From contig OZ249436.1 in assembly GCA_965235115.1 (NCBI GenBank), positions 32,738,001-32,802,000 of the forward strand: 64,000 nt of DNA, read 5' to 3'. Shown here in pieces: positions 4,300 through 50,167 of the stretch. Origin of the DNA: Laetmonice hystrix (Eukaryota). Positions within the stretch are counted from its first letter, which is position 1; every line of letters begins with the position of its first letter. The position numbers and the translations under genes are program-made. The notes under the pieces were generated by a model. It was given only the letters and a program-made list of their open reading frames with translations, did not search any database and had not been told where the DNA came from.

Positions 4300-5775
4300 C
4301 ACCTTATGGTGCCTGGGCATGAAGGTATCGCCTTATGGTGCCTGGGTATGGAGGTATCACCTGATGGTGCCTGGGCACGGAGGGTATCGCCTTATGGTGC
4401 CTGGGCACAGAGGTTATCGCCTTATGGTGCCTGGGCACGGAGGTATCACCTTATGGTGCCTGGGTATGGAGGTATCACCTTATGGTGCCTGGGTATGGAG
4501 GTATCGCCTTATGGTGCCTGGGTATGGAGGTATCACCTTATGGTGCCTGGGCACAGAGGTTATCGCCTTATGGTGCCTGGGTATGGAGGTATCGCCTTAT
4601 GGTGCCTGGGTATGGAGGTATCGCCTTATGGTGCCTGGGTATGGAGGTATCACCTTATGGTGCCTGGGCACAGAGGTTATCGCCTTATGGTGCCTGGGCA
4701 CGGAGGTATCACCTTATGGTGCCTGGGTATGGAGGTATCACCTCATGGTGCCTGGGCATGAAGGTATCGCCTTATGGTGCCTGGGCATGAAGGTATCGCC
4801 TTATGGTGCCTGGGTATTCAGGTATCACCTCATGGTGCCTGGGCACGGAGGTATCGCCTTATGGTGCCTGGACACGGAGGTATCACCTTATGGTGCCTGG
4901 GTATGGAGGTATCACCTTATGGTGCCTGAGCACGGAGGTATCACCTTATGGTGCCTGGGCACGGAGGTATCACCTTATGGTGCCTGGGCACGGAGGTATC
5001 GCGTTATGGGGCCTGGGCACGGAGGTATCACCTTATGGTGCCTGGGTATGGAGGTGTCACCTTATGGTGCCTGGGCACGGAGGTTATCGCCTTATGCTAT
5101 GGTGCCTGGGCACGGAGGTATCACCTTATGGTGCCTGGGCACGGAGGTATCACCTTATGGTGCCTGGGCACGGAGGTTACCACCTTATGGTGCCTGAGCA
5201 CGGAGGTTATCGCCTTATGGTGCCTGGGCACGGAGGTATCACCTCATGGTGCCTGGGCACGGAGGTATCACCTTATGGTGCCTGGGCACAGAGGTTATCG
5301 CCTTATGGTGCCTGGGCACGGAGGTATCACCTTATGGTACCTGGGCATGAAGGTATCGCCTTATGGTGCCTGGGCACGGAGGTATCGCGTTATGGTGCCT
5401 GGGCACGGAGGTATCACCTTATGGTGCCTGGGTATGGAGGTGTCACCTTATGGTGCCTGGGCACGGAGGTTATCGCCTTATGGTGCCTGGGCACGGAGGT
5501 TATCGCCTTATGGTGCCTGGGCACGGAGGTATCGCCTTATGGTGCCTGGGCACGGAGGTATCGCGTTATGGGGCCTGGGCACGGAGGTATCACCTTATGG
5601 TGCCTGGGTATGGAGGTGTCACCTTATGGTGCCTGGGCACGGAGGTTATCGCCTTATGCTATGGTGCCTGGGCACGGAGGTATCACCTTATGGTGCCTGG
5701 GCACGGAGGTATCACCTTATGGTGCCTGGGCACGGAGGTTACCACCTTATGGTGCCTGGGCACGGGGGTATCGCC
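4300..5775. repeat. Minisatellite, 29-bp unit (30-bp variants), ~50 copies
   Basis: Consensus CACCTTATGGTGCCTGGGCACGGAGGTAT repeated head-to-tail with variants (GTAT/GCAC, TCAC/TCGC, GGTTAT). Confidence 0.98.
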
Positions 5776-8642
5776 CTTTGACCTTTCACTAGTTTCAGGT
5801 TGCTTTCAGTAATGTAATAGGGAGAAAATGAAAGTCCTTGATAAAGAAAAGGCCGTGCGCCGAAAATGATCTTTATGGATGCTGACTCGGCCAACAAAAC
5901 TTGGAATATAGTCTTACACCAAATGTATACCAGAAATACCGTGTTGAAGATGGATATGGTCAGCTATGAAGAGTTTTGGTGTAAAGGGCTTATTCCAAGC
6001 AGACACGTGCATTTTCTTTAAAGAAAATGTTAGTAATATTTGTGTCGTTTAGTCGTAATATCCTGTTATCCTATATCTTTTTGGAAATTTCTCCGAAAAA
6101 GTTGGACGTGTTTTTTATCAAACACTGCCAGAATGTCGCAGTGGCATAAAGGAAATAAACCAGTTTTATCCTTCGTAAAACTCCCCGGATTTCTAAGATG
6201 ATTGACACCCATGTCTCACAACGTCTCACCAACAATTTCTCAGCTTCAGATTGGGTTCCCATCATATCAGACCTAGACGCTGCATGAGAAAGGTTGCTAT
6301 CAGACACGAAACAAGGGCCTTGAGATTTTATCATGCTTATACCGAGCAGAGAATGTGATTGACTGAGTTATCAACTGCCTTCACCGGAAGAAAGAAGCAA
6401 GAAACCTAAAGTTACGATGACAGGTCGGAGCTGTCACTATAACCTCGCAAGAAAAGGGGGCAAAAGGTCGTCTGTTCTCACCAACCTTATCTGTGTTAAA
6501 GGGTTTCTGTCACCCTGGTTGAGCGTTTCGGGAAGCCAGTTCGGCCTGGTTTCACGCTTACCTCATCAAAACCTATGCACCTTCTGTCCCGAGGATACTT
6601 CCTAGGTTTAATATACGTATGTATTGTAAACAGACAGCAGCGAAATGCAGTGTCATCTTCACATTCCACATTTCTTTTCGGGAACACTCAAAAACAACTC
6701 TGCTTTCTGCCATCGGGAATGTCTGACCTGCAGACATAGCGTTGAAACGGGTGAGATAATCACGTGATTGTGGCTATAGTCTCGCATTCTGTGAAAAGGG
6801 TGTAAAGTCGCCCAGCTAAAACTCTATCGCCTAGGTGGGCTACAGGTCTAGAAAAAGATGTGCGTCCCAAATATGCTGTTTTTTAAATATTTTTTTAAAA
6901 AATAGTCACGTAATCCAATCAGGCAAGTAGGCGGTGCTATGGAACATAATTGCCAGATTATAAACAAGCAGTTTTTTCGCCAATTTGTAAAATGTATATG
7001 AAATAATTGAGATAAACCCTTTAAGTCGACTTGTGTGGGAGCAAAAGACTAAAGTCATCTGATGAAACTCTGTCTTGGAATCCCTCGGGCTGTTCTTTCT
7101 CTAACAACTCTACTTAGATCAGATGGCTCCTCGTCGTCAAAGTTCACAAGTTGTCATCTTGAAAACTTTCAAGTTAGTTTAGAGAGTTTGCATCAGCTGT
7201 AAGTTTACAGTTAGTATGAAAACAACGTGCTGGAGGTCATATTTTGACGGACTAGATTTGGATAGACGGAATGTTCCCATAAAGAGAGGAATCCTGTTCG
7301 ATGTACGATACGTTTTTCCATACATACGGATTTCTTTTCTTTAGTGGTTTTTATTTCATTGCTATAATAATATATCTTTTAGTATTACTTTTCCTATTGC
7401 TAGAAGTCGGAGTCATCAGTTAACCAGTAGAAATGGTGTCTCCCCCAGGAGCTGGCCGTTTGTTTCCCGGAAAACGGGTGGAGTTTATCAGTAAACGTAG
7501 ATAGACCCCACAGAAGACACGGTAGGCACGTGTCCCCGAGAACAGCGAGTAGTACTGGTGTAGTAGTGACAGAGATATATTTGGGAAGATAGAGGGAGCA
7601 GAGAGATGGTCGCACACAACCATTTATCATAATAATATACTCGGACGGAAAGGGTCCCGTTGTGCGGCACGATATGACAGAAAGTGTTCTGGAATTGATA
7701 GCAGCATGGAGGTGGCGAACGGGGTGGAGGTCGGATTGGTGGATGGGGAGAGAGGAGAATGGATAATGATGACTTATAAATACTCTCTTCACCTCCCTCC
7801 ACATCTGTAGACAAACTGCACCCCCTCCCCCCGCCCCCGCCCCCCCCCCCCGATCTAGTGCCTGAGACAACTGCTGGAAGGGTGTTTTAACAGCAAGCTG
7901 ACAAGCTGAGTGCTGACAGTGGCCAAAAAGTCGCCAAAGAAACGTCGCGTTGGGATATGTCAGCAGGATTTTTGTTGTTGTTGATAGATATGTCTTCCCT
8001 GATATCCCTGAGCTCCATGAAGCGGATAAGCAGTAAGAGCTTTGCTTTCTGTTAGTCTCGACACCACAGTTAAAAGGTCAGCCTCGTTATTTGGGCATCT
8101 ATGTTTCCTCCTCCCTGTTATAGTGACTTTTCTTTTGATATACTCACTAGGCAATAATTTATTAACAGTAATATGGCACCTCGGGGTCGCCCACGTTATA
8201 AACAGACGGAGGCATGCCTTAGCGTTAATGTCAGCCCGAATTACCCAATTATTTGTCAACATCTGAGATTTTGTTTTACCAAGGTTTGAACACATACAAT
8301 CCCAGAATCCCAGTCCGGTGCCGGTCTCACGTGTTGAGTCGTGTACTTTAGTAAAAGAAACCTACCAATCGAGATTAGACTATACTGACATATAAAGTCA
8401 TTCACCGTGACACTGGCCCTGCGCCGGGGTACTGGTCGGTTATTTTGTTCATGCCTTATCTAAAGTGATGAGAGATGTACACAACTTAGATACCAGAAGG
8501 GTTCTGAAGTGTCACTTGTAGGAAGACAATATATTAAAAACTTTTACAGTTCTTTTGACGAGGCGAATACTAGCCTCAAAGCCGACCAGTGTCATAATGC
8601 GCCCTAGCCGCTAAGAGGATCAGACACCCCAGTTACAGTGGG

Positions 8643-9395
8643 CACCTTAGTAGGGAAACCTCTCTCAACCCACCTCAGTAGGGAAACCTCTCTCAACCCA
8701 CCTCAGTAGGGAAACCTCTATCAACCCACCTCAGTGGGGAAACACCTCTCAACCCACCTCAGTGGGGAAACACCTCTCAACCCACCTCAGTGGGGAAACA
8801 CCTCTCAACCCACCTCAGTAGGGAAACCTCTATCAACCCACCTCAGTGGGGAAACACCTCTCAACCCACCTCAGTAGGGAAACACCTCTCAACCCACCTC
8901 AGTGGGGAAACACCTCTCAACCCACCTCAGTAGGGAAACACCTCTCAACCCACCTCAGTGGGGAACACCTCATAACCCACCTCAGTGGGGAAACACCTCT
9001 CAACCCACCTCAGTAGGGAAACACCTCTCAACCCACCTCAGTGGGGAAACACCTCTCAACCCACCTCAGTAGGGAAACCTCTCTCAACCCAGCTCAGTAG
9101 GGAAACCTCTCTCAACCCACCTCAGTAGGGAAACACCTCTCAACCCACCTCAGTGGGGAAACACCTCTCAACCCACCTCAGTAGGGAAACCTCTCAACCC
9201 ACCTCAGTAGGGAAACACCTCTCAACCCACCTCAGTAGGGAAACCTCTCTCGACCCACCTCAGTAGGGAAACACCTCTTAACCCACCTCAGTGGGGAAAC
9301 ACCTCTCAACCCACCTCAGTAGGGAAACCTTTCTCAACCCACCTCAGTGGGGAAACACCTCTCAACCCGCCTCAGTAGGGAAACCTCTTTCAACC
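8643..9395. repeat. Minisatellite, 28-bp unit, ~27 copies
   Basis: Consensus CACCTCAGT(A/G)GGGAAAC(A/C)(C/T)CTCTCAACC in tandem. Confidence 0.97.
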
Positions 9396-10249
9396 GGTTC
9401 AACTGTGTATCTAATTTGTTGATCGGTCTACATGGTTTGTAGGCCTATTTATTTAACTCCCCCCTCCCCCCAAACAAAACATAAAACAAATACACCCTTG
9501 CTCATGCTATGAACCCATTTCCGGCAGAACTTTGATCTTCAGATGGGCTCCTTGTAGTGGCTGAGGCACGTGCTGTAGCAGGCATGGTCCCACACGACCT
9601 TAAACCAGGGCCTCTATGTCTGTGCGGTTGTTTTCCTTGTTACGACGTGTGGATTCAGATTTACCCGTCAGGCGGTCGTGCTCGTATCTCTCAACTTGAC
9701 CATCCGTCCATTTATCACTGGTAAACGTGTCGATCGAGGCAGACCTGCACTCTTGTGTCTGAGGACAGTGTCTCAGCCGTGAAGGGACCAGTTTGAGCAC
9801 TATTTCACAGTAAGGTCAGGAGGCCTTTAAGGATGGAGTAATGTACTCCATCATAATATTAAAAGGCCTGTATTAGCCGCAAAAGTACTTCAGGCATGTT
9901 TCATATAAACCTGCGCTATGAGCACAGAAGTATAATTTAAACGAGAGATTACCACATTTGTAATCTTAGCTCACATTGCAATTTTTCCAAAAACTTGAGT
10001 TCTTTTCGTCTCGTAACCGGATAGATACGAATTCTTTCTTTATAGCTGAGATCATTTAAGTATTAATAGTTTAGTCGCAGTCGTGCCGTTTACTCCATGT
10101 ATTGCGTTACAAAGAAAGTAAGAAAATATTACCCTTTTTATTAAGGTTTATGCAGGTGAACTTTGCGTGGAGGATAGACACCATGAAGAGTTTCAATATG
10201 ATCAACGTACCCGGCTACATGTGTAAACTTGTTTTTTGTCAGATGGCTG

Positions 10250-13265: not shown

Positions 13266-13270
13266 GTCGC

Positions 13271-13363
13271 CCAGGGCCAGTTGCATGACTGTCCGTTCGT
13301 TAATTTCCCCATGTATTTTCAATGGGAATTTTAACGAACGGACAGTCATGCAACTGGCCCTGG
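13271..13363. mobile_element. Palindromic ~90-bp MITE (PIF/Harbinger-like, CWG flanks), copy 1
   Basis: CCAGGGCCAGTTGCATGACTGTCCGTTCGTTAA ... TTAACGAACGGACAGTCATGCAACTGGCCCTGG: perfect ~33-bp inverted arms; abuts the truncated Tc1 remnant. Confidence 0.85.
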
Positions 13364-14448
13364 CCGGTGGGTGATAGGCTGTTGTGCCTAATTCTTCAAA
13401 ACGTTGTCTGAAGCCAATGGTACGCTAGGTTTTGAGTCATCTGTGGCATTTTGAAAAATGGCTGAACTGACCAGAAGACAGGGTGTGCCTGGGTTGACCA
13501 TACCTGATTTCAATAGATCTGGATGAGGTCCCACCTGACTGACGGGCCAGGGGCATGAAATTGACAATGATATGGAGAAGGTGACTGAAATGTACACAGA
13601 CCAGTGGCACACAACCTTCGTAATTAAACCCTACCAAGTCAACCAAAAATATATTTTTACGGAATATTGAAAAAATTAAAGTGTTGCGTTACAGGATCCC
13701 CATCCAACCCCACATTTAACCTTGACCCTTTGGTCCCTGTCATACGGGAAAACTTTACCAGGGAGAGGCATGATTTTTTTTAAAAGCTACATTAGTAACT
13801 GATGATGCAGGGTCAGGGTCCTCGGCCCATGTATCTGGCCCAATAATGATGGGCCGTACAAGTTTGTCGTCCACCTGCGGATACAATATTGAGCCAGTTG
13901 ATACAGTTGATCATCATGTTATAACCACATTTTAATTGGTCTCTTTGCAGTCCAAGACCATACTCTGCAGCATTGGTAAGTAAAGGTTTATCTTGATCTT
14001 TTTCAGCAATGTTTTTGGTACAGTTGGAATACTTTTTAAGAATATAATTTTAGCCAAGCGTAAAATAATAAAAAAAAATTGTGCGAATATTCTGTGTCAG
14101 TCCAGGGCCCGTAATTTTACTTGAGTCTGATTGGTTAAATGGATTTCAAGTTAATTAAAATTGACTTGACTTTGCTTGTGAAGCGGACCCTGGTATTAGG
14201 GATTTTTGACAACGTTACGTCACATGGCCCTTGTGGTAACGTGTTTGCATGGTTGAAGCTCGTCATAGAAGGTCAAATTTCTATCAGTGAATATGGGGAA
14301 GTCAAGTTATGCGTTACTTTTCTATTATTGACTTACTTCATACTACAGTCTTTGTATTGTATTGTATTAAATGTACCGAATTTTTTTCTGATAGTTTGGA
14401 GGGGGAGACTGGGTGTGCGGGTTTAATTAATGCAAGAACTGCACCCAT

Positions 14449-14541
14449 CAGGGGCCAGTTGCATGACTCTCCGTTCGTTAATTTCCCCATGTATTTTCAT
14501 TGAGAAATTTAACGAACGGAGAGTCATGCAACTGGCCCCAG
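14449..14541. mobile_element. Palindromic ~90-bp MITE, copy 2
   Basis: CAG|GGGCCAGTTGCATGACTCTCCGTTCGTTAA...TTAACGAACGGAGAGTCATGCAACTGGCCC|CAG; CAG duplicated at both ends. Confidence 0.85.
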
Positions 14542-14670
14542 GCAGAGTGACGTAAAAACATGTCAGAAGACCCAAGTTTAACATATTGGCTCATCTACCA
14601 GTGAAGAATTGCATGTGTGGTCAGGGCAGGGGTGTAGAAGAGTTGTCTTCGCCTGGTCGCTTTTACGGCC

Positions 14671-14763
14671 CTGGAGCCTGTTGCATGACTCTCCGTTCGT
14701 TAATTTCCCCATGTATTTTCAATGAGAATTTTAACGAACGGACAGTCATGCAACTGGCCCCAG
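14671..14763. mobile_element. Palindromic ~90-bp MITE, copy 3
   Basis: CTGGAGCCTGTTGCATGACTCTCCGTTCGTTAA...TTAACGAACGGACAGTCATGCAACTGGCCCCAG; nearly the same spacer as copies 1 and 2. Confidence 0.85.
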
Positions 14764-16501
14764 GTGGTACTAAACGTCTGAATATGAAGTTAACAAAGAT
14801 AAGTGGTTTTGTGAAAAAACAGTAGAAGTAAAGCAGTTGCTGACATTCATGTGGGGAAGCGTCTTGCTTTTCCTTTCCTTGGAATGGGAGTGTCGTTTGT
14901 GTTTGTGCAATGAGATTAGGGGGAGTGTATGGCAAAGAAATGTCTGGAGCATGTCTCATAATATCATTTCATTGTATTCGGGGGAAAACAAGACCCTGAC
15001 AAAGGGATTTGGGGACATGAGGGGTCCGGTGGACCAAGGCAGCTGATATTTATTACGTCCTTTCACGCAGTTCCGGCAATAAACACTGAATCTACCAGCA
15101 ATAATTGTCTGCGGTAAGTCAGTTGTTTAGCAGGCGCAGGGGAGCGGTTTCAACAGTTCACATCTTATATTCCATGAAGGCCAAAGGTTAGCAATGTGGA
15201 AGGCACTCGTGGTTTCTTAGAAAAGCACTAACACATCGTGGTTTTAAATATCTAGGTGTGCTGCAGAGGCTGAAATGCGGGTCGAAATTGAAATTATTTG
15301 TTACCTTCGCCTTTTTGGCGACGTTCATTTATTTGAGAAACAATTTGGATTGTTGTTAGACGACCATTTCCTGATCAGAGGCAATGGTTTAGTTAATGGT
15401 TTAGTTTTTCTGGCTAAACACCAAGTGGCATTTGGTCTCCGTTCAACCAGGCCAGAGGTATTTGGTGAGCATGGAGTGTTTGATATTCGAATCCAGGACG
15501 GAGCTGGGTATGCGGTGCGGCTGTACTCTGTACGCCAAGGGTTAATGGTGTGGTCTGTCCCGCCTGTCCGTCATCCGGGCCATCAGACGATGGTCTAACA
15601 CCTCGAAACTACTGCACAGATTTTCTTTAGATACAGGCCAACAGCTGCTCCAGAGTGGCTGGATGTGCTCTTGGATTTTAGCCAAAAAAGAAACCTCGTA
15701 TATTTGGAACTTTTTGCAAGTTTCTGTGAAGATTTAAGCATACGTCACCTGATTTAAGTATGTGAAGGCCAGGGTTTTTGGGGTTTCCCCCGAAGGGGCA
15801 GCGAGTACAGTTACTAAACCTTACACACACAAAATATCAGTATTTGTTTTTATTCTGATGTTTTTAGATCCACCATTGGTCCATCATGGTGCTCTTTCAT
15901 AATGTTACTTTTACTTACATGTGTGGAAGACTATAACAAGTACTATCTCCAAGGCGGTAAATTCTCGTTGTAAAGTGAATAGAGGTCGTATAGATCCTGG
16001 AAAGTCATCGGGTTTTGCAGTGACAAACTCCTTACAGGGATAATATTGGGAGAAATTCATCGAGTGATGAACATTTTGTTTCTTCTGTCAGAATCCTGCT
16101 TACTCTTTCAGCTTTAGAGTTCTCCGATGCCAAGACAAATCCTGGAACATCGTAGAGCTAAATGCCTTTAGGAGCTACCAGGCTCACTGTGTCTTTCTAG
16201 GTTATTGTCAAGTAATATTAACGAGAGAGTAGAATGGCCCTAGAAGACAGTAAAATACACAACCTAACTATATACAGTAAGAAAGATAATAGCTTTATTG
16301 TTTGCAGTACTTTCTTTTCCTAGAAATTCTCCTCCCGTTATGTAGCCTACGTAAATTCCTCCATTTTCTTTAAATATAGAAGCTTGGCAATACATTCTAG
16401 AAATTTCTTGTAGTAAATCCCTGGTAGATTACAGTTAGGTGCAGATAGGGCTTTTGGTACAAGTGATTGAGTGATGGGCGCAGGCGTCTGCACGCAGAAT
16501 G

Positions 16502-24721: not shown

Positions 24722-25067
24722 AGGGAATAGAAAAGTTCCTCACTAACGTACCTTTGAACACCAGTAACACCATATAAAGTGTCTAAGGTCTCACCGATAA
24801 GTGGAACACTGTCAACGGCGACTTTTTAAAAATACCGCCCGGGTCATTCGCTATTTCCCACGTGAGACGGCGGGAGCTATATCTATTAATAGATTGAGAT
24901 AAGCGCCAAATAGGGTAAACAAACCGACGAACCCAGCGGGAGAATGTGTCTACATTTAGGTTGATTATTCCTTTATTAAAGATCAGATAATCACAGAATT
25001 GTAGGTAAGAACAAGCTTGTTCATGCTGAACACCCTTATATTGATAGTTTGAACTTTTCTATTCCCT
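24722..25067 (+). mobile_element. Non-autonomous DNA transposon, TTAA TSD, 17-bp TIR (Kolobok-like), complete copy
   Basis: TTAA|AGGGAATAGAAAAGTTC ... GAACTTTTCTATTCCCT|TTAA; AG...CT termini; a second copy lies inverted at 44822-45154. Confidence 0.9.
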
Positions 25068-25214
25068 TTAATGCGACTCTATAATTGAAGTGATTAAAGC
25101 GGAGGTAAAATACGTAACAGAATAATAATGCCCCTACCTATAAAATGACCACCTGACTGCTAGCAAACGTGCTGCAGATAAGGTCCTCTGATTATACGAT
25201 TGAATTCGTAGTAT

Positions 25215-25949
25215 TATCGTACCCCTAGTTTCACTATGGGCTACTCTTGCTCAAAATAATGAACAGACAACTTATGTCAGAGACAATTCTTATGTTTAGT
25301 TGTAAATTGTATACGTTTGATTTACACCCAGAAAGATTATATGTTCATTATAAACATTTACCAACCATGTTATGGTGTATTAAGGATTTAACCACCGTTC
25401 TCAGATGTTCAGTTTGTATTCATTGTCTGCTACCAGCATCTTAGGTTTACAAACAATGTAATCTCTTGGGTGACATATGTTCTCCATTGATGGTTTTCCC
25501 CAGCTTTCGTTTGGGAGGTTGATTTATTAATGAAGGCAGGACAGTCATAGGGGCAGAGTCGCTCATCACAGGGAACCCGTAATACAGGTGTTTTCTCACC
25601 TATTGTTTCCCACCTCTGTGAAGCAGCTCACTAGTGCCAGGATGTCGGCCTCAGTAATCACTGCTCATTAGACTGTCTGCCAGTGCCAACTTACTTGTCT
25701 TTAACAACAATATACAATCCCCAAAGTGGCCTGCCCTGTGATGGTTTAGCCAATCGGGAGCTAGCATTTTTATGTTGTATATCATTGGTCAGTTTGACAA
25801 TGGTTTTCTCTATATATACTCATGTTATAACTTTGTACAAAGACTTGGAAAGTGAACTGGAATAAACTTCATATAGTTGACCAGCTCAACCTCGTCCTTC
25901 TGCTGTACACGCAGTCTTCTGGAATGTCGTAGGAACCCTCCGTACGATA
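25215..25949 (+). repeat. 5' LTR (735 bp)
   Basis: Apparently identical to 27322-28056 (offset 2107; the two small ORFs in the track are identical in both). Contains a TATATATA run (~25811) and AATAAA (25861). Confidence 0.95.
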
Positions 25950-25951
25950 AT

Positions 25952-25967
25952 TGGTGGAGAACCCGGG
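25952..25967 (+). promoter_or_regulatory. Primer-binding site, tRNA-Ala-like
   Basis: TGGTGGAGAACCCGGG starts 2 nt after the LTR end. Its reverse complement ends ...TCTCCACCA, as in the 3' ends of eukaryotic tRNA-Ala plus CCA. Confidence 0.8.
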
Positions 25968-26043: not shown

Positions 26044-27171
26044 ATGGACGGATTTCTCCCACAACCTGTTCTGGCATTTTTACATGATGCCAAGAATCTT
26101 GGAGTGTCGCTAAGCTGGTCCATCTCCAGCTCACAGGATAAGAAGTCCATAGTTCTGGAGTGGAATACCCATCCAGATACAGATAAGTCCATTTGTGTGT
26201 CATCGACCTCTGGTCACAAATCTCCAAGCAGACGTCGCCGTGATGCTCAGAGATATCAGGCCTGGACCAAGAAGAAGCAGGAGACCAGCCAGTCAGCATC
26301 CAGGAGTAGAGAAGAGGAGAGCAAGGGACCAGCCAAGCCAGTCCACCATCCTCAGGGGCAGAGGTCAGCGGCTTTGCAGCAGAAACGCCACAAGAAATGC
26401 AAGTCAACTGCCAGGCTCTCTACCCCACAACAGAATCAACATCCTCCTCCAGTGAGTGCCGTTTCGCTCGACCATGGACCATCCAAGTCAACCGCATCAA
26501 CCCAAACAAACAGGCCAGTGACCATCTCTCGTGAGCTGCAAACTGCTCCTCCCACTGTCCAGTCTAAAGGTGTGCAAGCACTTTGCCCTGTGCCATCCGA
26601 GACCAAGAGTTGTCAGAGTGAGGCAGTGAGCAGATCTGACTCTGCTACTCAGACTTGGACAATCAGGGGTGACCAAAGTACCCAGACTGTGGGAAATGGC
26701 CCCCAGAAGACAAAGCAATTGTTGGATCCCATGTGTCTAGAATCTAGTGAGCTGGAGTTCCCAGATCAACACTTCCTTGATTCCCTGGTCAGAAATAGAA
26801 GTGATCCACGGTCACTTCCCATACTGCATCAAGCTGGACAGAGAAGTATACCCGTGTGTGATAAGAGCCTCACAAGGAAATTGTCTTATAGACAAGAGAT
26901 CTATGAGAGCCATGTGTTACTCTCTGAACCCATTGATTACGATATCACACATATCAAAGACTGTTTTGGATTTCTTGAACGTGACGAGGCATTTTATCTT
27001 CTCACAAAGTATAGAGGGCTGCATTACCTTATACCAGATGAAGGACGTTACTCAGACTTTGAACAGTTGGACCATGCTGGATCACTCTGTGTGACACTTT
27101 TAATTTATGATTATAGAAGACGGAGGTATATCCAACCAGAACCTCGATATAATAACCTTGTTCAAGTTTAA
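26044..27171 (+). CDS. 375-aa ORF of the LTR element, unknown function; basic KSPSRRRRD motif and a central array of TQT-like motifs
   Basis: Longest non-repeat ORF in the window. ATG in a strong ACCATGG context, uninterrupted, and fills most of the 1372-bp internal region. No CCHC knuckle, protease, RT, RNase H or integrase motif seen. Confidence 0.8.
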   Translation: MDGFLPQPVLAFLHDAKNLGVSLSWSISSSQDKKSIVLEWNTHPDTDKSICVSSTSGHKSPSRRRRDAQRYQAWTKKKQETSQSASRSREEESKGPAKPVHHPQGQRSAALQQKRHKKCKSTARLSTPQQNQHPPPVSAVSLDHGPSKSTASTQTNRPVTISRELQTAPPTVQSKGVQALCPVPSETKSCQSEAVSRSDSATQTWTIRGDQSTQTVGNGPQKTKQLLDPMCLESSELEFPDQHFLDSLVRNRSDPRSLPILHQAGQRSIPVCDKSLTRKLSYRQEIYESHVLLSEPIDYDITHIKDCFGFLERDEAFYLLTKYRGLHYLIPDEGRYSDFEQLDHAGSLCVTLLIYDYRRRRYIQPEPRYNNLVQV

Positions 27172-27282: not shown

Positions 27283-27321
27283 GAGATTGGATGCTCCAAT
27301 CTCAGTTGAGCGAGGGGGATA
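27283..27321 (+). promoter_or_regulatory. Stem-loop followed by polypurine tract upstream of the 3' LTR
   Basis: GAGATTGGA-TGC-TCCAATCTC (perfect 9-bp stem, 27283-27303), then GAGCGAGGGGGATA (27308-27321) directly abutting the LTR. Confidence 0.8.
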
Positions 27322-28056
27322 TATCGTACCCCTAGTTTCACTATGGGCTACTCTTGCTCAAAATAATGAACAGACAACTTATGTCAGAGACAATTCTTAT
27401 GTTTAGTTGTAAATTGTATACGTTTGATTTACACCCAGAAAGATTATATGTTCATTATAAACATTTACCAACCATGTTATGGTGTATTAAGGATTTAACC
27501 ACCGTTCTCAGATGTTCAGTTTGTATTCATTGTCTGCTACCAGCATCTTAGGTTTACAAACAATGTAATCTCTTGGGTGACATATGTTCTCCATTGATGG
27601 TTTTCCCCAGCTTTCGTTTGGGAGGTTGATTTATTAATGAAGGCAGGACAGTCATAGGGGCAGAGTCGCTCATCACAGGGAACCCGTAATACAGGTGTTT
27701 TCTCACCTATTGTTTCCCACCTCTGTGAAGCAGCTCACTAGTGCCAGGATGTCGGCCTCAGTAATCACTGCTCATTAGACTGTCTGCCAGTGCCAACTTA
27801 CTTGTCTTTAACAACAATATACAATCCCCAAAGTGGCCTGCCCTGTGATGGTTTAGCCAATCGGGAGCTAGCATTTTTATGTTGTATATCATTGGTCAGT
27901 TTGACAATGGTTTTCTCTATATATACTCATGTTATAACTTTGTACAAAGACTTGGAAAGTGAACTGGAATAAACTTCATATAGTTGACCAGCTCAACCTC
28001 GTCCTTCTGCTGTACACGCAGTCTTCTGGAATGTCGTAGGAACCCTCCGTACGATA
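27322..28056 (+). repeat. 3' LTR (735 bp)
   Basis: Direct repeat of 25215-25949, followed by the GTAT TSD. Confidence 0.95.
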
Positions 28057-30445
28057 GTATTAGCAAACGTGTACACGAAAATTAGATCGAGCTATGTGTT
28101 GGTTCTCGAGCTCCGATCATCTTCCCAGTGCCAAAATGCCAACATTAGGGGGAAAGACGATCGTCTTTTTCAATAGAAGGGGATTTTCAGTATGAAATCG
28201 ACATAAAATGAGGTAACTAGTGGTATCATTGACTAGATGGTCTCACAGGTATATTTTGAGAACTGTGTGTTTTGGAGCGTGTTCAATTTTTACCTCCGCT
28301 TTAACCCTGAATGAAGGCATTTGACTTTTGTATGACTTGCTTCATTGTAAACTTTCTTGGCGCTGATCTATACATGTACATTTGTCTTGGAATAAAATGT
28401 GAATGCTGTCTAGTTAAAAAGAAGCTGCAACTCAATTCAAAACTGTCAGCGATGTCCCAAGTCAAGGCCAAGGTGTCGCCATTACGGCAAAATGGCATGG
28501 GAGATATTTCAGTCATAAACGATGCAATCTATCGATTATGCTCAAACACGAAGTGACAGTAACTCGTACAGTGACATTAGAAAAAGTAGACAGGCTAAAG
28601 TCTCCTGAGCATCAGGCCAAGTCGGCCACCCTGGCTAAAATCTATACCGAGTATAATATATAACGTCATTGCAGATCTACAGATCTAAGTCATTTTATTA
28701 CCCGTCATATCAACATGCAATGTGAATGATACGCAAAAAGACTTTATGAACCTTCATGCCCTGAAATAATTCAAAAATGATTAAGTATAGAGAAGATTGT
28801 TTTTTTACAGTCTGATCGTGACGTCACCCCCCCCCCCCCCCTTCCCCAAGCTAGAATCTAGAATCCTAGGCAGACACTTATCGGCGAATCGTCCTTAGAA
28901 TCACCTCAAACCTTCCTCTACAGACGCGCCGTCATCTGCTTCCTTCACTATACACTACTACGGTCGTTTTTGTGTGTGAATATTTATTGTACTTAGGCAA
29001 GCCTTGCCGACCGCAGCCCGACGTAAACATCGTTACGGGCATAGAAATCGTGTTCTTTGGTTCAACCAACGCATTCGTCTTTGGGACCGATATTGGTGTT
29101 AATTTGGGAAAATAGGTTCTCGATGTGTCAACGTGTCTACTAGTACAACAATCACAATTGTGTATTATAAAGATAAGCAGGTGAAGATGTGTGTGGGCTA
29201 CAATTATAAGTGTGTTGTAAGTGTAAACAAAGTGCACCAGGATAAACGGACTCAGATGATACAAGTTGTTCCTGAAGCCATGCACCCTGCCGTCAAGGGA
29301 AAACCAAAAGTTAACGAATTCAGTTGCTACTTCTTCACTCTGCTTCACTTGTGAACTCAAAGACGTCCTTCATTGGAAGTTCATGTCATGTTGATTCTGT
29401 ATAACATACATGTTTATTATGGGGAATGGTTAATTGTTGTCCATGTAATTTGTGTATGCTGTTGTTATTTTTCTTGGAACCTTTCTCAAAGGAGGGCCTA
29501 GAAATATAAAATAACAAAACGGGATTAGAGTTTGACTACACGATACACATGGTGACGAGAGGTAACTTTGTTAATGTACTATGTCAGTTAACAAATTGAA
29601 AGGTAAAGATAGTTTCCCTAAGTCCGGTCGTAGTTTCCACATAGTTGCTATAATTACATAGTTGTACGTTATGGACAGACGTACGATACACGTTTATGAT
29701 TGTGTAAACTGACAGGTTTGTGCGCTTTTGAAGATCCAAAAATCACTTGGATTGGGACTACTATCAAAGATTGAATAATTGACTTTGGCATCTATAAGGT
29801 TTAGTAGATGCAAACGAACAACTGCAGGCTATTGCCACTCACCCCATCAACACACGAATGCACACCCATGATTCGATTTGGTCATCGAAAAACATGCGCG
29901 TGTATGTCACAGCCTATCTTTGTAATGTTTGAATGAAATAAAATATGGTTCCCAAAAGGAGGTACCACTGGTTCTAGATGATCTCTTATGCCAGGAATTA
30001 TTAATAATTATTAAGTGGTGTATGTTACTTGACAACCTTAACAACGGTATAAATGAGGCTTGTGTGTGGGTGGGTGGGGGTGCGAGGAGGGGGGGGGGCA
30101 CGTCTAGACGGTCGCCCGTAATCATGCGTTGGTCCACACATTCTCCTTGGTGTTGCTGACAGAAGGCGGTGAGGAACATAGTTGACGGGGTGAATTGATC
30201 ATCGCAAGCCCCGCCTGATGAAAGCACACGTAGGCATGTTCCACTACTGACAAAACAGCCGGCGACTGACTTTTTCAGGATCACACTGCGTCTGAGGCAG
30301 AATGGTGCGGAACATAACAGAACAGTCGAGCCTGTTCCCACCGACCCCGCACACGTTCCCTGTTTTACGACCTGAGCATAATCATTCTGCCTGATGCCGA
30401 CGATTTCGGCGCGGCGCAAGCAATCGCAGGTGCGACCTGTGGCCT

Positions 30446-31732
30446 TGTTACAACCTATAATGTAATAACTGACCGATAATGTGATAAAGGTCAAAATTTT
30501 ATAAATTATTACATTATCAACACCCTCTCCAACCGATAATGTAATAATCGACCGATAGTGTAATAAAATTTCTAACCGATAATGTAATACAATTTTGACT
30601 CCGATAATGTAATAATCGACCGATAATGTAATCGAATTTCTAACCGATAATGTAATACAATTTTCACCAAGAGTGTAATAAGATACGCTAACCGATAGTG
30701 AAACTTGGCGTCAATTGAAAGAGCATGCATGACTTCCTATTCGTGCTCAATAGTAACTATGGCCCTATCTGGCCCCGTTTCCGAGTTAGAGCCATAGATA
30801 TGTAAAGTGGCCACTGTTCAAAATTTTCAGGTCACGTGGTTTAACAAAATAGGTCAAATCGATTCTAGCAAAGGGGATTCCACTGACCCTCTCTTTAGAG
30901 ACCATCCCTGTGCAATTTAATAAAATTTTAATGAAAATCGAGGAAGAAGTAGGCATTTAAGCATTTTCTGACCTTTGACCCAGCTCTCAGACACGTCAAA
31001 GGTCAAAGGTCAAAATATTTGCAAAAAATGAATTAGGTCTCTGCTCAATTCCGACAGTTCATCAGTTTCTAAAAAGTTTCCATATTGACCTTGAAAACCG
31101 TCCCAATAGTCAGAACACTAATGACGGCATAACGTCATTGTCAGATCAGAGTTGGTGACTATCAACATGTCCACCAAATTTGACTTTGATATCTTGAAAA
31201 ACGACCGAGATACGACCCCTGTTTACTACTACTACATCTACTACGCATATAATACAGAAACCGAAACCAGACCATTTCTAGATCCCATCCCCCTAGGATG
31301 GGGGATGGGATAATAAAAAGGCGTAATTTTGGAACGTAATTTTTAATAAGTTGGGTGTTATGTAACACTTATTCACACACCCCAACCCCTCCCTCTGTAA
31401 CGCTTTGTAACGGAACCCTACATACCCAACCACCCCCCAAGCGTTACGTAATTTATGGACAGCCCCCAAGGCAGGGTAGAGATTTGCCTCTTCACTTTAT
31501 TACATTATCGGTCAAGATGGTATTACATTATAATAGCGTATTTTATTACATTATCCGTCAAAATTGTATTATAATATCGGTTAGCAATTTTTCCCGAATT
31601 TCATTACATTATCGGTAGATTATTACATTTTTAGTTGGAGAGGTTGTTGATAATGTAATGATAATGTAATAATTTATCAAATTTTGACCTTTATCACATT
31701 ATCGGTCAGTTATTACATTATCGGTTGTAACA
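30446..31732. mobile_element. Non-autonomous DNA transposon with long TIRs, TGT...ACA termini and 5-bp TSD (Ginger-like)
   Basis: GGCCT|TGTTACAACCTATAATGTAATAACTGACCGATAATGTGATAAAGGTCAAAATTT... matches ...AAATTTTGACCTTTATCACATTATCGGTCAGTTATTACATTATCGGTTGTAACA|GGCCT. The inverted similarity extends >100 bp and is built from ACCGATAATGTAAT sub-repeats. No transposase ORF. Confidence 0.88.
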
Positions 31733-40560: not shown

Positions 40561-41330
40561 CCTCACCCCCCCCCCCCCACACACACACACACTTTCATTG
40601 GAGCATAAATTTACGGGTGCTTACATGCGTATCTCACAGGTCTATAATATTCCTTTTGTTCCAATAAATATCGCAGTCTGCGGCTTTAAGGGACACAACG
40701 GAGTATAATAGGGGTCTCTATTTTAAGTCAGAGCGACCTATGTGGGCTATATCTCACGGACGTATCTTCGCACCCAAGTACTTGTAGGAAAACAAACGCC
40801 AGGTCGGGTTTGTGGTAATAGCAGGTCTACAGCTCGAGGGTGGGAACGTTTACCCTCAGCGTCTCTCAAGGGAGCAAACTGGGCCTGACTTGTCTTGGTG
40901 AGGGCCAAAAGTCGGTCAGTAGTGGGGCTCATAATATCAGGGTGAACCGTTACTGTCATAGCATTTAGGTCAGCTCTGGCAACTGTGTGCACGATACTAT
41001 AACAAGTTGATTTTGGATAATAATTACTTTCAATAAAACATCGTTAAGATTACCATTGAAACACAACCGGCAATATGATCGCTTGTGCAATTTCATCTTT
41101 ATTCGATTCTTGATCAAATTTCCTGTCACACCCTTTTTGGGTTATACTGATCAGCCAGATTCCCAGACTTCCTGGATGATGTAAAACCAACATTGGGCGT
41201 ACAGTGTAGGGGTCCATGGAAACATCCTGTACATTGGGTCGATCTGATTATACTGTATGTACACATGTGGCAGGTGCAGCTTTCAGATAGCATCTTCACG
41301 TTTGGCCTCCTTGAACACTACAGGGTCCGG

Positions 41331-41975
41331 CGGGTGGGTGGGTGAGGTGGAGAGGTATGGGGGTGGAGTGGGTGGGTGGGGGTGAATATAGGTATGGGTG
41401 ATGGAGGAGTTACCGGGGTGGATAGGTATGGGAGAGGGAGTAGGTGGGTGGGGGTGGAGTTACCGGGGTGGATAGGTACGGGAGGTTGGGTGGGTGGGTG
41501 GGGGTGGAGTTACCGGGGTGGATAGGTATGGGAGGTTGGGTGGGTGGGTGGGGGTGGAGTTACCGGGGTGGATAGGTATGGGAGGTTGGGTGGGTGGGTG
41601 GGGGTGGAGTTACCGGGGTGGATAGGTATGGGAGGTTGGGTGGGTGGGTGGGGGTGGAGTTACCGGGGTGGATAGGTATGGGAGGTTGGGTGGGTGGGTG
41701 GGGGTGGAGTTACCGGGGTGGATAGGTAAGGGAGGTTGGGTGGGTGGGTGGGTGTGGAGTTACCGGGGTGGATAGGTATGGGAGGTTGGGTGGGTGGGTG
41801 TGGAGTTACCGGGGTGGATAGGTATGGGAGTTGGAGTGGGTGGGTGGGTGGGGGTGGAGTTACCGGGGTGGATAGGTATGGGTAGGGGGTGGAGTGGGGG
41901 TGGAGTTACCGGGGTGGATAGGTATGGGTGGGGGTGAAGTGGGGACGGAGTTACCGGGGTGGACAGGTATACTGG
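41331..41975. repeat. G-rich minisatellite, ~50-bp unit
   Basis: TACCGGGGTGGATAGGTATGGGAGGTTGGGTGGGTGGGTGGGGGTGGAGT, ~12 copies, degenerate at the edges. Confidence 0.95.
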
Positions 41976-41984
41976 GGTGGAGCG

Positions 41985-44143
41985 GATGGGTGGTCGTTTG
42001 GATTGGGTGAGGGGGAGGGGGTGATGGGTGGTCGTTTGGATTGGGTGAGGGGGGGGGGGGTGATGGGTGGTCGTTTGGACTGGGTGAGGGTGAGGGGGTG
42101 ATGGGTGGTCGTTTGGACTGGGTGAGGGGGGGGGTGATGGGTGGTCGTTTAGATTGGGTGAGGGGGAGGGAGTGATGGGTGGTCGTTTGGACTGGGTGAG
42201 GGTGAGGGGGTGATGGGTGGTCGTTTGGATTGGGTGAGGGGGAGGGGGTGATGGGTGGTCGTTTGGACTGGGTGAGGGGGAGGGGGTGGTGGGTGGTCGT
42301 TTGGACTGGGTGAGGGGGAGGGGGTGATGGGTGGTCGTTTAGACTGGGTGAGGGGGAGGGGGTGATGGGTGGTCGTTTAGACTGGGTGAGGGTGAGGGGG
42401 TGATGGGTGGTCGTTTGGACTGGGTGAGGGTGAGGGGGTGATGGGTGGTCGTTTGGATTGGGTGAGGGGGAGGGGGTGATGGTTGGTCGTTTAGACTGGG
42501 TGAGGGGGAGGGGGTGATGGGTGGTCGTTTGGACTGGGTGAGGGTGAGGGGGTGATGGGTGGTCGTTTAGACTGGGTGAGGGTGAGGGGGTGATGGGTGG
42601 TCGTTTAGACTGGGTGAGGGTGACGGGGTGATGGGTGGTCGTTTAGACTGGGTGAGGGTGAGGGGGTGATGGGTGGTCGTTTAGACTGGGTGAGGGGGAG
42701 GGGGTGATGGGTGGTCGTTTAGACTGGGTGAGGGTGAGGGGGTGATGGGTGGTCGTTTAGACTGGGTGAGGGGGAGGGGGTGATGGGTGGTCGTTTAGAC
42801 TGGGTGAGGGGGAGGGGTGATGGGTGGTCGTTTGGACTGGGTGAGGGGGTGATGGGTGGTCGTTTGGACTGGGTGAGGGGGAGGGGGTGATGGGTGGTCG
42901 TTTAGACTGGGTGAGGGTGAGGGGGTGATGGGTGGTCGTTTGGACTGGGTGAGGGTGAAGGGGGTGATGGGTGGTCGTTTGGACTGGGTGAGGGGGAGGG
43001 GTGATGGGTGGTCGTTTGGACTGGGTGATGGGGAGGGGGTGATGGGTGGTCGTTTGGACTGGGTGAGGGGGAGGGGGTGATGGGTGGTCGTTTGGACTGG
43101 GTGAGGGGGAGGGGTGATGGGTGGTCGTTTGGACTGGGGGAGGGGGAGGGGGTGATGGGTGGTCGTTTGGACTGGGTGATAGGGAGGGGGTGATGGTTGG
43201 TCGTTTGGACTGGGTGAGGGGGGGGGGGGGGGAGGTGATGGGTGGTCGTTTAGACTAGTTGAGGGGGAGGGGGTGATGGGTGGTCGTTTGGACTGGGTGA
43301 TGGGGAGGGGGTGATGGGTGGTCGTTTGGACTGGGTGAGGGTGAGTGGGTGGTGGGTGGTCGTTTGGACTGGGTGAGGGTGAGGGGGTGATGGGTGGTCG
43401 TTTAGACTGGGTGAGGGTGAGGGGGTGATGGGTGGTCGTTTGGACTGGGTGAGGGTGAGGGGGTGATGGATGGTCGCTTGGACTGGGTGAGGGTGATGGG
43501 TGGTCGTTTAGACTGGGTGAGGGTGAGGGGGTGGTGGGTGGTCGTTTGGACTGGGTGAGGGTGAGGGGGTGATGGGTGGTCGTTTAGACTGGGTGAGGGG
43601 GAGGGGGTGATGGGTGGTCGTTTGGACTGGGTGAGGGTGAGGGGGTGATGGGTGGTCGTTTAGACTGGGTGAGGGTGAGGGGGTGATGGGTGGTCGTTTG
43701 GACTGGGTGAGGGTGAGGGGGTGATGGGTGGTCGTTTAGACTGGGTGAGGGTGAGGGGGTGATGGTTGGTCGTTTAGACTGGGTGAGGGTGAGGGGGTGA
43801 TGGTTGGTCGTTTAGACTGGGTGAGGGTGAGGGGGTGATGGGTGGTCGTTTGGACTGGGTGAGGGTGAGGGGGTGATGGGTGGTCGTTTAGACTGGGTGA
43901 GGGTGAGGGGGTGATGGTTGGTCGTTTAGACTGGGTGAGGGGGAGGGGGTGATGGGTGGTCGTTTAGACTGGGTGAGGGTGAGGGAGTGATGGGTGGTCG
44001 TTTGGACTGGGTGAGGGTGAGGGGGTGATGGGTGGTCGTTTGGACTGGGTGAGGGTGAGGGTGTGATGGGTGGTCGTTTAGGCTGGGTGAGGGTGAGGGG
44101 GTGATGGGTGGTCGTTTAGACTGGGTGAGGGGGAGGGGTGATG
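41985..44143. repeat. G-rich minisatellite, 38-bp unit, ~57 copies
   Basis: TGATGGGTGGTCGTTT(G/A)GACTGGGTGAGGG(T)GAGGGGG in tandem, directly abutting the 50-bp array. Confidence 0.98.
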
Positions 44144-44638: not shown

Positions 44639-44821
44639 TTAATTATATCCCTAACAATGTCGTCTATCATAACAGTATTTATAATGGGTGCTTACTTCTT
44701 TGTGTATTTTTTTCTATTTTTCTCACATTATAGCCTTATCCCAAGTGTGCTATATGATCTTAAAATGTAAGGAGATGTTCATTAAGACCTCGTTCAGTGT
44801 TGAGTTCTATATATAGATTAA

Positions 44822-45154
44822 AGGGAATAGAAAAGTTCAAACTATCAATATAAGGGTGATCAGCGTGAACAAGTTTGTTCTTACCTACAATCCTGTGATT
44901 ATCTGATCTTTAAAAGGAATAATTAACCGAAATGTAGAGACATTCTCCCGCTGGCTTCGTCGGTTTGTTTACCCTATTTGGCCATTATCTCAATCTATTA
45001 ATAGATATAGCTCCCGCTGTCTCACGTGGGAAATAGCGAATGACCCGGGCGGTATTTTTAAAAAGTCGCCGTTGACAGTGTTCCACTTATCGGTGTGACC
45101 TTAGACACTTTATATGGTGTTACTGGTGTTCAAAGGTACGTTAGTGAGTAACTT
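44822..45154 (-). mobile_element. Inverted second copy of the 24722-25067 TTAA element, one end clipped
   Basis: Reverse complement of 24722-25067 with scattered substitutions. TTAA|AGGGAATAGAAAAGTTC is intact; the other TIR stops after TTAGTGAGTAACTT. Confidence 0.9.
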
Positions 45155-48756: not shown

Positions 48757-50167
48757 TTTAATGATGGTAACAGTTCCGAGAGGGATATCCAGAGTCGTGT
48801 ATGTTGTAGTTTCGGCACTGAGTTAATGGGGGTAACAGTTCCGAGAGGGATATCCAGAGTCGTGCATGTTGTAGTTTGGGTACTGAGTTAATGAGGGTAA
48901 CAGTTCCGAGAGGGATAGCCAGAGTCGTGCATGTTGTAGTTTGGGTATACAGAGTTAATGAGGGTAACAGTTCCGAGAGGGATATCCAGAGTCGTGCATG
49001 TTGTAGTTTGGGTATACTGAGTTAATGAGGGTAACAGTTCCGAGAGGGATATCCAGAGTCGTGCATGTTGTAGTTTGGGTATACTGAGTTAATGAGGGTA
49101 ACAGTTCCGAGAGGGATATCCAGAGTCGTGCATGTTGTAGTTTCGGTACTGAGTTAACGAGGGTAACAGTTCCGAGAGGGATATCCAGAGTCGTGCATGT
49201 TGTAGTTTGGGTACTGAGTTAAGGGGGGTAACAGTTCCGAGAGGGATATCCAGAGTCGTGCATGTTGTAGTTTGGGTACTGAGTTAAGGGGGGTAACAGT
49301 TCCGAGAGGGATATCCAGAGTCGTGCATGTTGTAGTTTCGGTACTGAGTTAAGGGGGGTAACAGTTCCGAGAGGGATATCCAGAGTCGTGCATGTTGTAG
49401 TTTGGGTACTGAGTTAAGGGGGGTAACAGTTCCGAGAGGGATATCCAGAGTCGTGCATGTTGTAGTTTCGGTACTGAGTCCGAGAGGGATATCCAGAGTC
49501 GTGCATGCAGTAGTTTCGGTACTGAGTTAATGAGGGTAACAGTTCCGAGAGGGATATCCAGAGTCGTGCATGTTGTAGTTTCGGTACTAAGTTAATGAGG
49601 GTAACAGTTCCGAGAGGGATATCCAGAGTCGTGCATGTTGTAGTTTCGGTACTAAGTTAATGAGGGTAACAGTTCCGAGAGGGATATCCAGAGTCGTGCA
49701 TGTTGTAGTTTCGGTACTAAGTTAATGAGGGTAACAGTCCCGAGAGGGATATCCAGAGTCGTGCATGTTGTAGTTTGGGTATACAGAGTTTATGATGGTA
49801 ACAGTCCCGAGAGGGATATCCAGAGTCGTGCATGTTGTAGTTTGGGTATACTGAGTTAATGAGGGTAACAGTTCCGAGAGGGATATCCAGAGTCGTGCAT
49901 GTTGTAGTTTCGGTACTGAGAGGGATATCCAGAGTCGTGCATGTTGTAGTTTCGGTACTAAGTTAATGAGGGTAACAGTCCCGAGAGGGATATCCAGAGT
50001 CGTGCATGTTGTAGTTTCGGTATACAGAGTTAATGAGGGTAACAGTTCCGAGAGGGATATCCAGAGTCGTGCATGTTGTAGTTTCGGTACTGAGTTAATG
50101 ATGGTAACAGTTCCGGGAGGGATATCCAGAGTCGTGCATGTTGTAGTTTCGGAGGCTACTGAGTTAA
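48757..50167. repeat. Minisatellite, 65-bp unit (67-bp variant), ~21-22 copies
   Basis: GAGTTAATGAGGGTAACAGTTCCGAGAGGGATATCCAGAGTCGTGCATGTTGTAGTTT(C/G)GGTACT; two shortened units near 49475 and 49920. Confidence 0.98.

Follow-up and report, generated by a model that had tools for sequence, protein, structure and literature searches.

A young, non-autonomous Gypsy-type LTR retrotransposon of Laetmonice hystrix encodes a single accessory protein carrying six periodic TQT-like motifs, and this array is predicted, with good confidence, to bind the host dynein light chain LC8 (DYNLL). We consider it likely that the array is multivalent and that LC8 zips two copies of the protein into a duplex. The motifs had been noticed in a first-pass annotation of the window, the whole 64,000-nucleotide stretch of DNA analysed here; the predicted ubiquitin-like C terminus of the protein, which is variable and has been swapped between lineages, is new in this analysis. 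Transposon accessory proteins with a known mechanism are few, and an element that is non-autonomous would be expected to shed its ORF.

A short element with one open reading frame

The element is laid out as follows (window coordinates).

25211..25214, unstranded: left target-site duplication GTAT (flank comparison)
25215..25949, + strand: 5′ LTR, 735 bp, TAT...ATA ends, TATA-like box at 25811 and AATAAA at 25861
25952..25967, + strand: primer-binding site (PBS), adjoining the 5′ LTR
26044..27171, + strand: single ORF, 375 aa, no Pfam match
27283..27303, + strand: inverted-repeat hairpin 5′ of the polypurine tract, common to the autonomous Gypsy elements L085–L087
27308..27321, + strand: polypurine tract (PPT), directly before the 3′ LTR
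27322..28056, + strand: 3′ LTR, 735 bp, 0 mismatches against the 5′ LTR (LTR alignment)
28057..28060, unstranded: right target-site duplication GTAT (flank comparison)

With identical LTRs, GTAT duplicated on both flanks and, within its 2,842 bp, only one ORF of at least 150 aa and no gag-pol frame, this is a young, non-autonomous LTR retrotransposon. The LTR-element context given in the first-pass annotation is confirmed; that the element is non-autonomous was missed there. Its PBS is presumably tRNA-Ala-like, and tRNA and Rfam scans of the element returned no match, neither a tRNA nor a 5S segment. TRIMs (Helenus, Ajax, Cassandra) are likewise non-autonomous with an LTR-PBS-PPT organization, and animal Helenus likewise makes a 4-bp duplication and is thought to be mobilised by Gypsy elements (PMC10886601, in excerpt). 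TRIMs are, however, shorter than 1 kb and encode no mobilisation protein, whereas this element has a conserved 375-aa ORF, and the named TRIM groups carry a small-RNA-derived LTR segment (same excerpt); membership of TRIM, Helenus, Ajax or Cassandra is ruled out by the element's length, its coding ORF and the empty tRNA and Rfam scans.

The helper of the element is probably the clade of L085–L087, a canonical Ty3/Gypsy family with gag and PR-RT-RH-INT order. These gag-pol elements match ours at 77% over 66 bp from the hairpin through the PPT to the LTR start, and at 86–88% over 34–35 bp from the LTR end to the PBS. As the analysis covered 20 of the 150 integrase matches and 20 of the 142 that fit the PBS pattern, the true helper may belong to another family; a Gmr1-type helper was dropped in view of the candidate's domain order. 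The ORF has no similarity to the Gag of the candidate helper (L086; best E 1.5), a profile search against the gag and pol frames of L051–L104 gave no match to it, and its structure model contains no capsid-like domain; a remote Gag-derived origin may apply to the N terminus. Among 59 N-terminal matches none placed the family ORF inside an autonomous element, and the ORF profile run against 54 loci matched a decayed copy (L067) and nothing else. MaLR and TR-GAG elements likewise have LTRs around a single ORF and no pol; their ORFs are Gag-derived, whereas the ORF described here lacks Gag similarity and is modelled as a motif array with a ubiquitin-like domain. As a separate observation, in L088, a Gypsy relative, a third frame of 700 aa lies behind pol (L088:293-2392 (−)); it begins like a signal peptide, ends in a hydrophobic stretch, looks env-like by eye and has no Pfam match, and L085–L087 have no long frame at that place.

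In the genome (G000; 627 Mb, 35 contigs), 64 of 77 candidates were protein matches to the ORF, of which 28 are full-length, stop-free and 82–100% identical, with other lineages near 52–61%, 49% and 38%. The 50 loci examined gave 48 intact coding sequences, 45 of them distinct. Among the latter the 4-bp flanks match in 30 by an automatic check and the LTR pairs are mostly 99–100% identical, and all lineages have therefore transposed recently. ORF-bearing copies predominate in the family: 47 of 57 matches to LTR end plus PBS lie at ORF copies, while five of the other ten share family sequence without an intact family ORF and five are dissimilar. The lineages are mosaics between which the ubiquitin-like domain has been swapped. 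L001 and L017 are 93–100% identical save for one block at 53–60%; L030–L037 have the same LTR and front half, only four motifs and a C-terminal half that is 13–30% identical, and no donor of this ubiquitin-like half was found. Protein database searches recovered the same small set of relatives each time (8, 9, 3 and 9 proteins) from collections that may hold few animal transposon proteins.

Two arrangements of related sequence were seen in passing. At L005–L007 (G000:C21:17970649-17978932), three tandem element copies with identical match scores share LTRs at a period of 2,081 bp, and L058 and L059 (G000:C11:9397400-9412500) have the same LTR and PBS around a different interior with no frame of at least 200 aa.

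The periodic motif array

The six motifs, all in frame within the ORF and numbered from Met1 at 26044, are these.

26488..26511, + strand: LC8-type motif 1, STASTQTN, anchor Q154 (in-frame position and alignment)
26524..26547, + strand: LC8-type motif 2, ISRELQTA, anchor Q166 (in-frame position and alignment)
26560..26583, + strand: LC8-type motif 3, QSKGVQAL, anchor Q178 (the docked motif of the best complex run)
26599..26622, + strand: LC8-type motif 4, ETKSCQSE, anchor Q191 (non-canonical in the window copy)
26635..26658, + strand: LC8-type motif 5, SDSATQTW, anchor Q203 (in-frame position and alignment)
26668..26691, + strand: LC8-type motif 6, GDQSTQTV, anchor Q214 (in-frame position and alignment)

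The anchor codons start at 26503, 26539, 26575, 26614, 26650 and 26683, so that the first-pass reading of six periodic TQT-like motifs holds, with anchors 12, 12, 13, 12 and 11 residues apart. Three of the six are TQT and the others LQT, VQA and CQS; in diverged relatives motif 4 has a TQ or AQ anchor. The periodicity was also correctly placed at the protein level, as the array DNA has no tandem period (best autocorrelation 0.32 at lags 20–79). Four tests of 20,000 shuffles apiece (aa 83–234 and aa 145–220, two anchor patterns each, the patterns being written post hoc) yielded no six-anchor chain at 11–13 spacing, and the longest shuffled chain reached five anchors, once. Nor did such a chain occur in 180 other stop-to-stop frames of at least 150 aa (68,954 aa) drawn from loci L051–L104 and the rest of the window; five of these frames held chains of 3–5 and in them the same 8-mer is repeated, as in translated tandem repeats. 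S, T, Q and P make up 52% of the array segment.

Conservation in homologues, which the first-pass annotation had named as a check, is seen in register. Of the 45 distinct copies, 38 retain every one of the six anchor glutamines, at identities as low as 35–37%, and the other seven, which are recombinants, keep motifs 1–4 only. Because six of these seven four-motif copies have LTR pairs that are 99.9–100% identical, the full set of six sites is not required for transposition. Proteins from other assemblies, 40–58% identical to the nearest copy in this genome, have six motifs (P0002, P0010–P0013, P0015) or five, with one whole repeat unit cleanly missing (P0014); P0003 and P0004 are partial and were excluded from this count. 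The lineage that has diverged furthest comes closer to the canonical form: five of its motifs are TQT and one is AQT. Over six lineage representatives (35–92% identical), mean identity is 1.00 at the anchor (Q0), 0.82 at +1 and 0.67 at −1, against 0.39 at other array positions and 0.32 in the linker. Counting against the LC8 reading, 3 of 13 non-anchor glutamines are likewise conserved at 1.0 (mean 0.52). Between lineages the anchor codons have pN of 0.10–0.20 against pS of 0.58–0.80, and comparison of lineages 35–50% identical indicates purifying selection on the ORF. Also on the opposing side, shared array alleles within the young family are 9 synonymous and 31 non-synonymous, a ratio of 1.15 with no depletion of amino-acid changes, in a crude count confounded by recombination.

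The strict ELM-type LC8 pattern, which we take to be K/R at −3 with TQT and which the first-pass annotation had put forward as a score, matches none of the six motifs in the window protein. Many proven LC8 binders also lack it (Table S4, PMC6607443), and the published rules ask for a polar −4 with nothing hydrophobic larger than Ala, the Q anchor between mid-sized hydrogen-bonding or hydrophobic residues at −1 and +1, a large or basic −3, no internal Pro and a non-hydrophobic +2 (PMC6607443, section 9). Across 57 motifs, Q is present in all, having been selected on, −1 is T in 36 and V in 10, and +1 is T in 45. Position −4, which was not selected on, is S, T, D or N in 54 of 57 motifs against a background of 0.335 and a large hydrophobic in none, giving p ~0.0014 if the six columns are taken as independent, for motifs that are related by descent. 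This bias matches the published rule and a hand count of Table S4, in which 65 of 79 known binders and 13 of 32 non-binders have S/T/D/N at −4 (PMC6607443); it is the most telling feature of the array. Position −3 is K, R, Q or V in 34 of 57 motifs and S or A in 11; Pro is found at −5, −4, −3 or −1 in none. Two features disfavoured in LC8 binders do occur, Pro at −2 in 6 of 57 motifs and a hydrophobic +2 in 33%. Compared individually with Table S4 (PMC6607443), motif 1 is identical to a CAPRIN2 binder at positions −4 to +1, motif 2 resembles an ATMIN site, and motif 6 resembles a listed non-binder save at position −2.

Terminal domains and modelling with host LC8

An AlphaFold 2 (AF2) model of the protein, built on an alignment of 10 sequences only, divides the parts around the array as follows.

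26044..26166, + strand: N-terminal helix and beta-hairpin, aa 1–41, conserved (AF2 model, alignment)
26218..26292, + strand: KSPS and Arg-rich helix, aa 59–83 (AF2 model, alignment)
26746..26856, + strand: helical extension, aa 235–271, before the ubiquitin-like domain (AF2 model)
26857..27132, + strand: ubiquitin-like beta-grasp domain, aa 272–363 (AF2 model, fold searches)

The N-terminal helix-hairpin is of low confidence, a helix is placed at residues 63–83 and the C-terminal domain is confident. Between them, aa 83–234 has pLDDT below 50 and no secondary structure, and the array is thus predicted to lie in a disordered region; a folded segment, which the first-pass annotation held would count against LC8 binding, is not what the model gives. 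Residues 59–83 form the most conserved long segment (aa 59–74 at 0.91 identity) and aa 59–145 contains 20 K/R against 6 D/E; the KSPS/Arg-rich helix may be a nuclear localization signal or bind nucleic acid. Similar KSPS/Arg-helix N termini presumably occur in uncharacterised invertebrate proteins. Modelled alone (pTM 0.30), the N terminus found no fold match (best Z 2.7), which is not evidence of a new fold, and an ESM Atlas search with aa 1–90 gave no usable match.

At the other end, aa ~271–363 models as a ubiquitin-like (beta-grasp) fold of unassigned sub-family. Fold searches returned Z of 7–8.8 against SUMO, FAT10, UBL and PI3K domains, among them SUMO2 (Z 7.8, rmsd 2.0, 75 aligned), FAT10 (Z 7.8, rmsd 2.1, 76 aligned) and PI3KC2a (Z 8.8, rmsd 2.6, 95 aligned), and nearly all of the 50 matches listed are ubiquitin-fold domains. 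An SH2 identity suggested for aa 225–374 by the ESM Atlas (sub-0.9) was rejected, as the confident model gives a beta-grasp in these searches. Pfam holds no family for the whole protein or its C-terminal 105 aa, and the A1 profile has 0 matches among PDB sequences. Neither the window protein nor its aligned relatives have a di-glycine after the last strand, and the predicted domain is therefore an interaction module rather than a conjugatable modifier. Constraint differs sharply along the protein: dN/dS is 0.08–0.27 at the N terminus, a strong constraint, against 0.68–0.76 between lineages in the ubiquitin-like domain. One pair has pN 0.09 and pS 0.02, and in lineage B shared alleles at aa 284–312 are 0 synonymous and 9 non-synonymous, a pattern not repeated in other groups; positive selection on this domain is only hinted at.

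The host has three intronless, nearly identical LC8 genes on one contig (L081, L082, L083). Modelling of two L081 chains with two copies of aa 144–220, the kind of check that the first-pass annotation had suggested, gave a mixed outcome. In its favour, the complex score was 0.65 against 0.12 for the best of 3 controls, and the best run set motif 3 in both grooves with Q178 near LC8 residues 36 and 62–63, which we take to be the canonical register. Less favourably, contact agreement between runs is at least 0%, the partner pLDDT is 42–44 and the pass may be a recall of solved LC8–peptide complexes. In a calibration that excludes peptides and disordered chains, the score mark reached is attained by 51 of 78 solved microbial pairs and 2 of 108 mismatched ones; for eukaryotic pairs the corresponding counts are 39 of 65 and 2 of 126. 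AlphaFold false positives for LC8 include anchor-dead mutants. We treat the complex model as support by likeness, not proof.

An LC8-driven duplex and its alternatives

The window copy has 3–5 residues between its 8-residue motifs (3–6 across the family, for a period of 11–14), similar to the linkers of known LC8 rods, 3–4 residues in KANK1 and 4–5 in Nup159 (PMC12803091, in excerpt), and we therefore read the array as an LC8-driven zipper; the dimerisation idea of the first-pass annotation thus agrees with the Nup159/KANK1 geometry. Each host LC8 dimer would bind the same motif on two protein chains, and up to six dimers would stack along the linkers and zip the chains together. As in Nup159 and KANK1, the resulting duplex would be parallel and fairly rigid, with a length of ~20 nm when scaled from the 15 dimers per ~50 nm of KANK1. 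Individually weak sites would bind cooperatively, as weak sites in KANK1 do according to the Discussion of PMC12803091; such compatibility with KANK1-style cooperativity also means that sequence alone is less able to refute the claim. Against a uniform rod, LC8 complexes can come out heterogeneous and off register where linkers are very short. The rod would hold the Arg-rich N-terminal module apart from the paired ubiquitin-like heads. More speculatively, the N-terminal module might enter the nucleus or hold the element's own RNA or DNA, and the paired heads might bind a partner bivalently, candidates being a host silencing factor, a ubiquitin/SUMO-pathway factor or the helper's particle. Binding of that partner would benefit the element encoding the protein. 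The survival of the ORF in a helper-dependent element suggests a benefit to the encoding copy, whether protection from silencing, for which VANC offers a precedent, or better capture of helper particles.

Other readings of the repeats dispense with LC8. SQ/TQ clusters are targets of ATM/ATR-type kinases, and S or T stands at −1 in 39 of 57 motifs; yet the other 18 have V, L, C, I or A there and would be unphosphorylatable at that site, +1 is more conserved than −1, and the −4 bias and fixed period are not kinase features, so we regard a phosphorylated cluster as highly improbable. We give slimmer odds again to self-folding or assembly of the ~12-residue repeats as a beta-solenoid or amyloid-like ladder: the regular period with T-x-T faces and the deletion of one whole unit in P0014 would suit it, but the low pLDDT and lack of secondary structure in the model, a period varying from 11 to 14 and prolines common in the linkers do not. 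That the motifs arose by chance in the S/T/Q-rich linker of a decaying element, for which the composition of the segment could be cited, is largely refuted by the shuffles, by retention of the motifs at saturated synonymous divergence, by the −4 signature and by their presence in other assemblies, and we attach almost no weight to it.

Readings that keep LC8 and change its role also fare poorly. The first-pass annotation had suggested transport of retroelement RNPs, with LC8 as a cargo adaptor linking them to dynein; LC8 is a dynein subunit and the basic N-terminal half could bind RNA, but LC8 is generally accepted to be a dimerisation hub and not a cargo adaptor (PMC6607443, Introduction), the model fills both grooves with element chains and leaves none for the dynein intermediate chain, and a tether needs no six stacked sites, all of which makes transport improbable. 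It is likewise unlikely that the array is a sponge titrating LC8 from an LC8-dependent host silencing complex. Such complexes exist, as Panoramix silencing in Drosophila needs LC8-driven dimerisation through two TQT motifs, and six sites would offer high capacity; but no Panoramix orthologue is identified beyond insects (PMC7861614, in excerpt), LC8 is plentiful and has many uses, ORF-less copies could cheat on a sponge acting in trans although ORF-bearing copies predominate, and the fixed spacing and two conserved terminal domains would be left unexplained.

The duplex zipped by LC8 has its closest parallels in Nup159 and KANK1-L2, which likewise place several 8-residue motifs with 3–5 residue linkers, partly weak and non-canonical, in a disordered region between two functional ends (PMC12803091, PMC10046861, in excerpts). 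Those are host structural proteins with measured binding, whereas the element protein is encoded by a mobile element, has 4–6 sites depending on lineage and is predicted to bind; by analogy the array would work as theirs do, and it is a homologue of neither. ASCIZ/ATMIN also has many TQT-type motifs (PMC10046861, in excerpt; Table S4 of PMC6607443) but has long linkers mixed with short ones, makes heterogeneous complexes and carries zinc fingers, in contrast to the uniformly short linkers and lack of a zinc finger here (PMC10046861, in excerpt). Parasite proteins that use LC8 include rabies/Mokola P, Ebola VP35, HPV E4, ASFV E183L and HHV-7 U19; for each of them a single motif or two are listed, no retroelement protein is among them (PMC6607443), and here a periodic six-site array is seen. 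VANC of the VANDAL transposons is likewise an accessory, non-enzymatic transposon protein plausibly acting for its element's own benefit, although it belongs to plant DNA transposons and its demethylation effect has been shown (PMC6719617, in excerpt), whereas anti-silencing by the protein described here is inferred. In a literature search of incomplete coverage, neither an LC8 array nor such an architecture was found for any retroelement protein.

The architecture predicts an LC8 stoichiometry, a rod length and a partner for the variable ubiquitin-like head. If confirmed, it would show that selfish elements, like host scaffolds, make use of the LC8 rod, supply a natural series of 4-, 5- and 6-site proteins for cooperativity studies, and provide bait for identifying, in an animal, a new restriction factor of the host or a target for hijacking the helper. 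We also entertain, tentatively and with considerable doubt, a broader possibility: a satellite-like class of animal retroelements without gag or pol, each with one LC8-built effector, in which one end of a ~20-nm LC8 rod would carry nucleic acid of the element itself and the other a swappable ubiquitin-like pair, these heads being engaged in an arms race against either a host silencing factor or a helper retrovirus-like element. LC8 use might then be a recurring strategy among retroelement accessory proteins, because two unrelated families of the same genome also carry TQT-type motifs.

One of these is a second non-autonomous LTR family (L065:7926-8762 (−), L069 and L072) with identical 358-bp LTRs and the same PBS core, whose ORF of ~260 aa has a zinc knuckle (PF00098), a basic linker and, immediately ahead of a segment resembling a coiled coil, a single textbook LC8-type motif, DQETQTT. 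The other comprises third ORFs of further Gypsy families (L097:7237-8352, L099:7335-8444 and L103:7042-8352), 36–39% identical, with two C2H2 fingers, a Pro-rich linker and, a short way ahead of a conserved block of ~40 aa, a motif that is TQT-like (TQA in L097), an ASCIZ-like layout.

The window holds further repeats. Minisatellite arrays at 4200–5800, 8541–9501, 41315–43600 and 48758–50197, with periods of ~29, 28, 50/38 and 65 bp, are the source of most other long open frames. A dispersed repeat at 24733–25072, ending ~140 bp upstream of the element, recurs at 96% identity in opposite orientation at 44817–45154. Inverted-repeat pairs at 30446–31732 and 13268–14767, with 74-nt arms at 97% and palindromic ~92-nt units, are typical of MITE or foldback elements, and 52466–64000 is occupied by four tandem units of ~3.05 kb that are almost identical and contain no frame of at least 150 aa.
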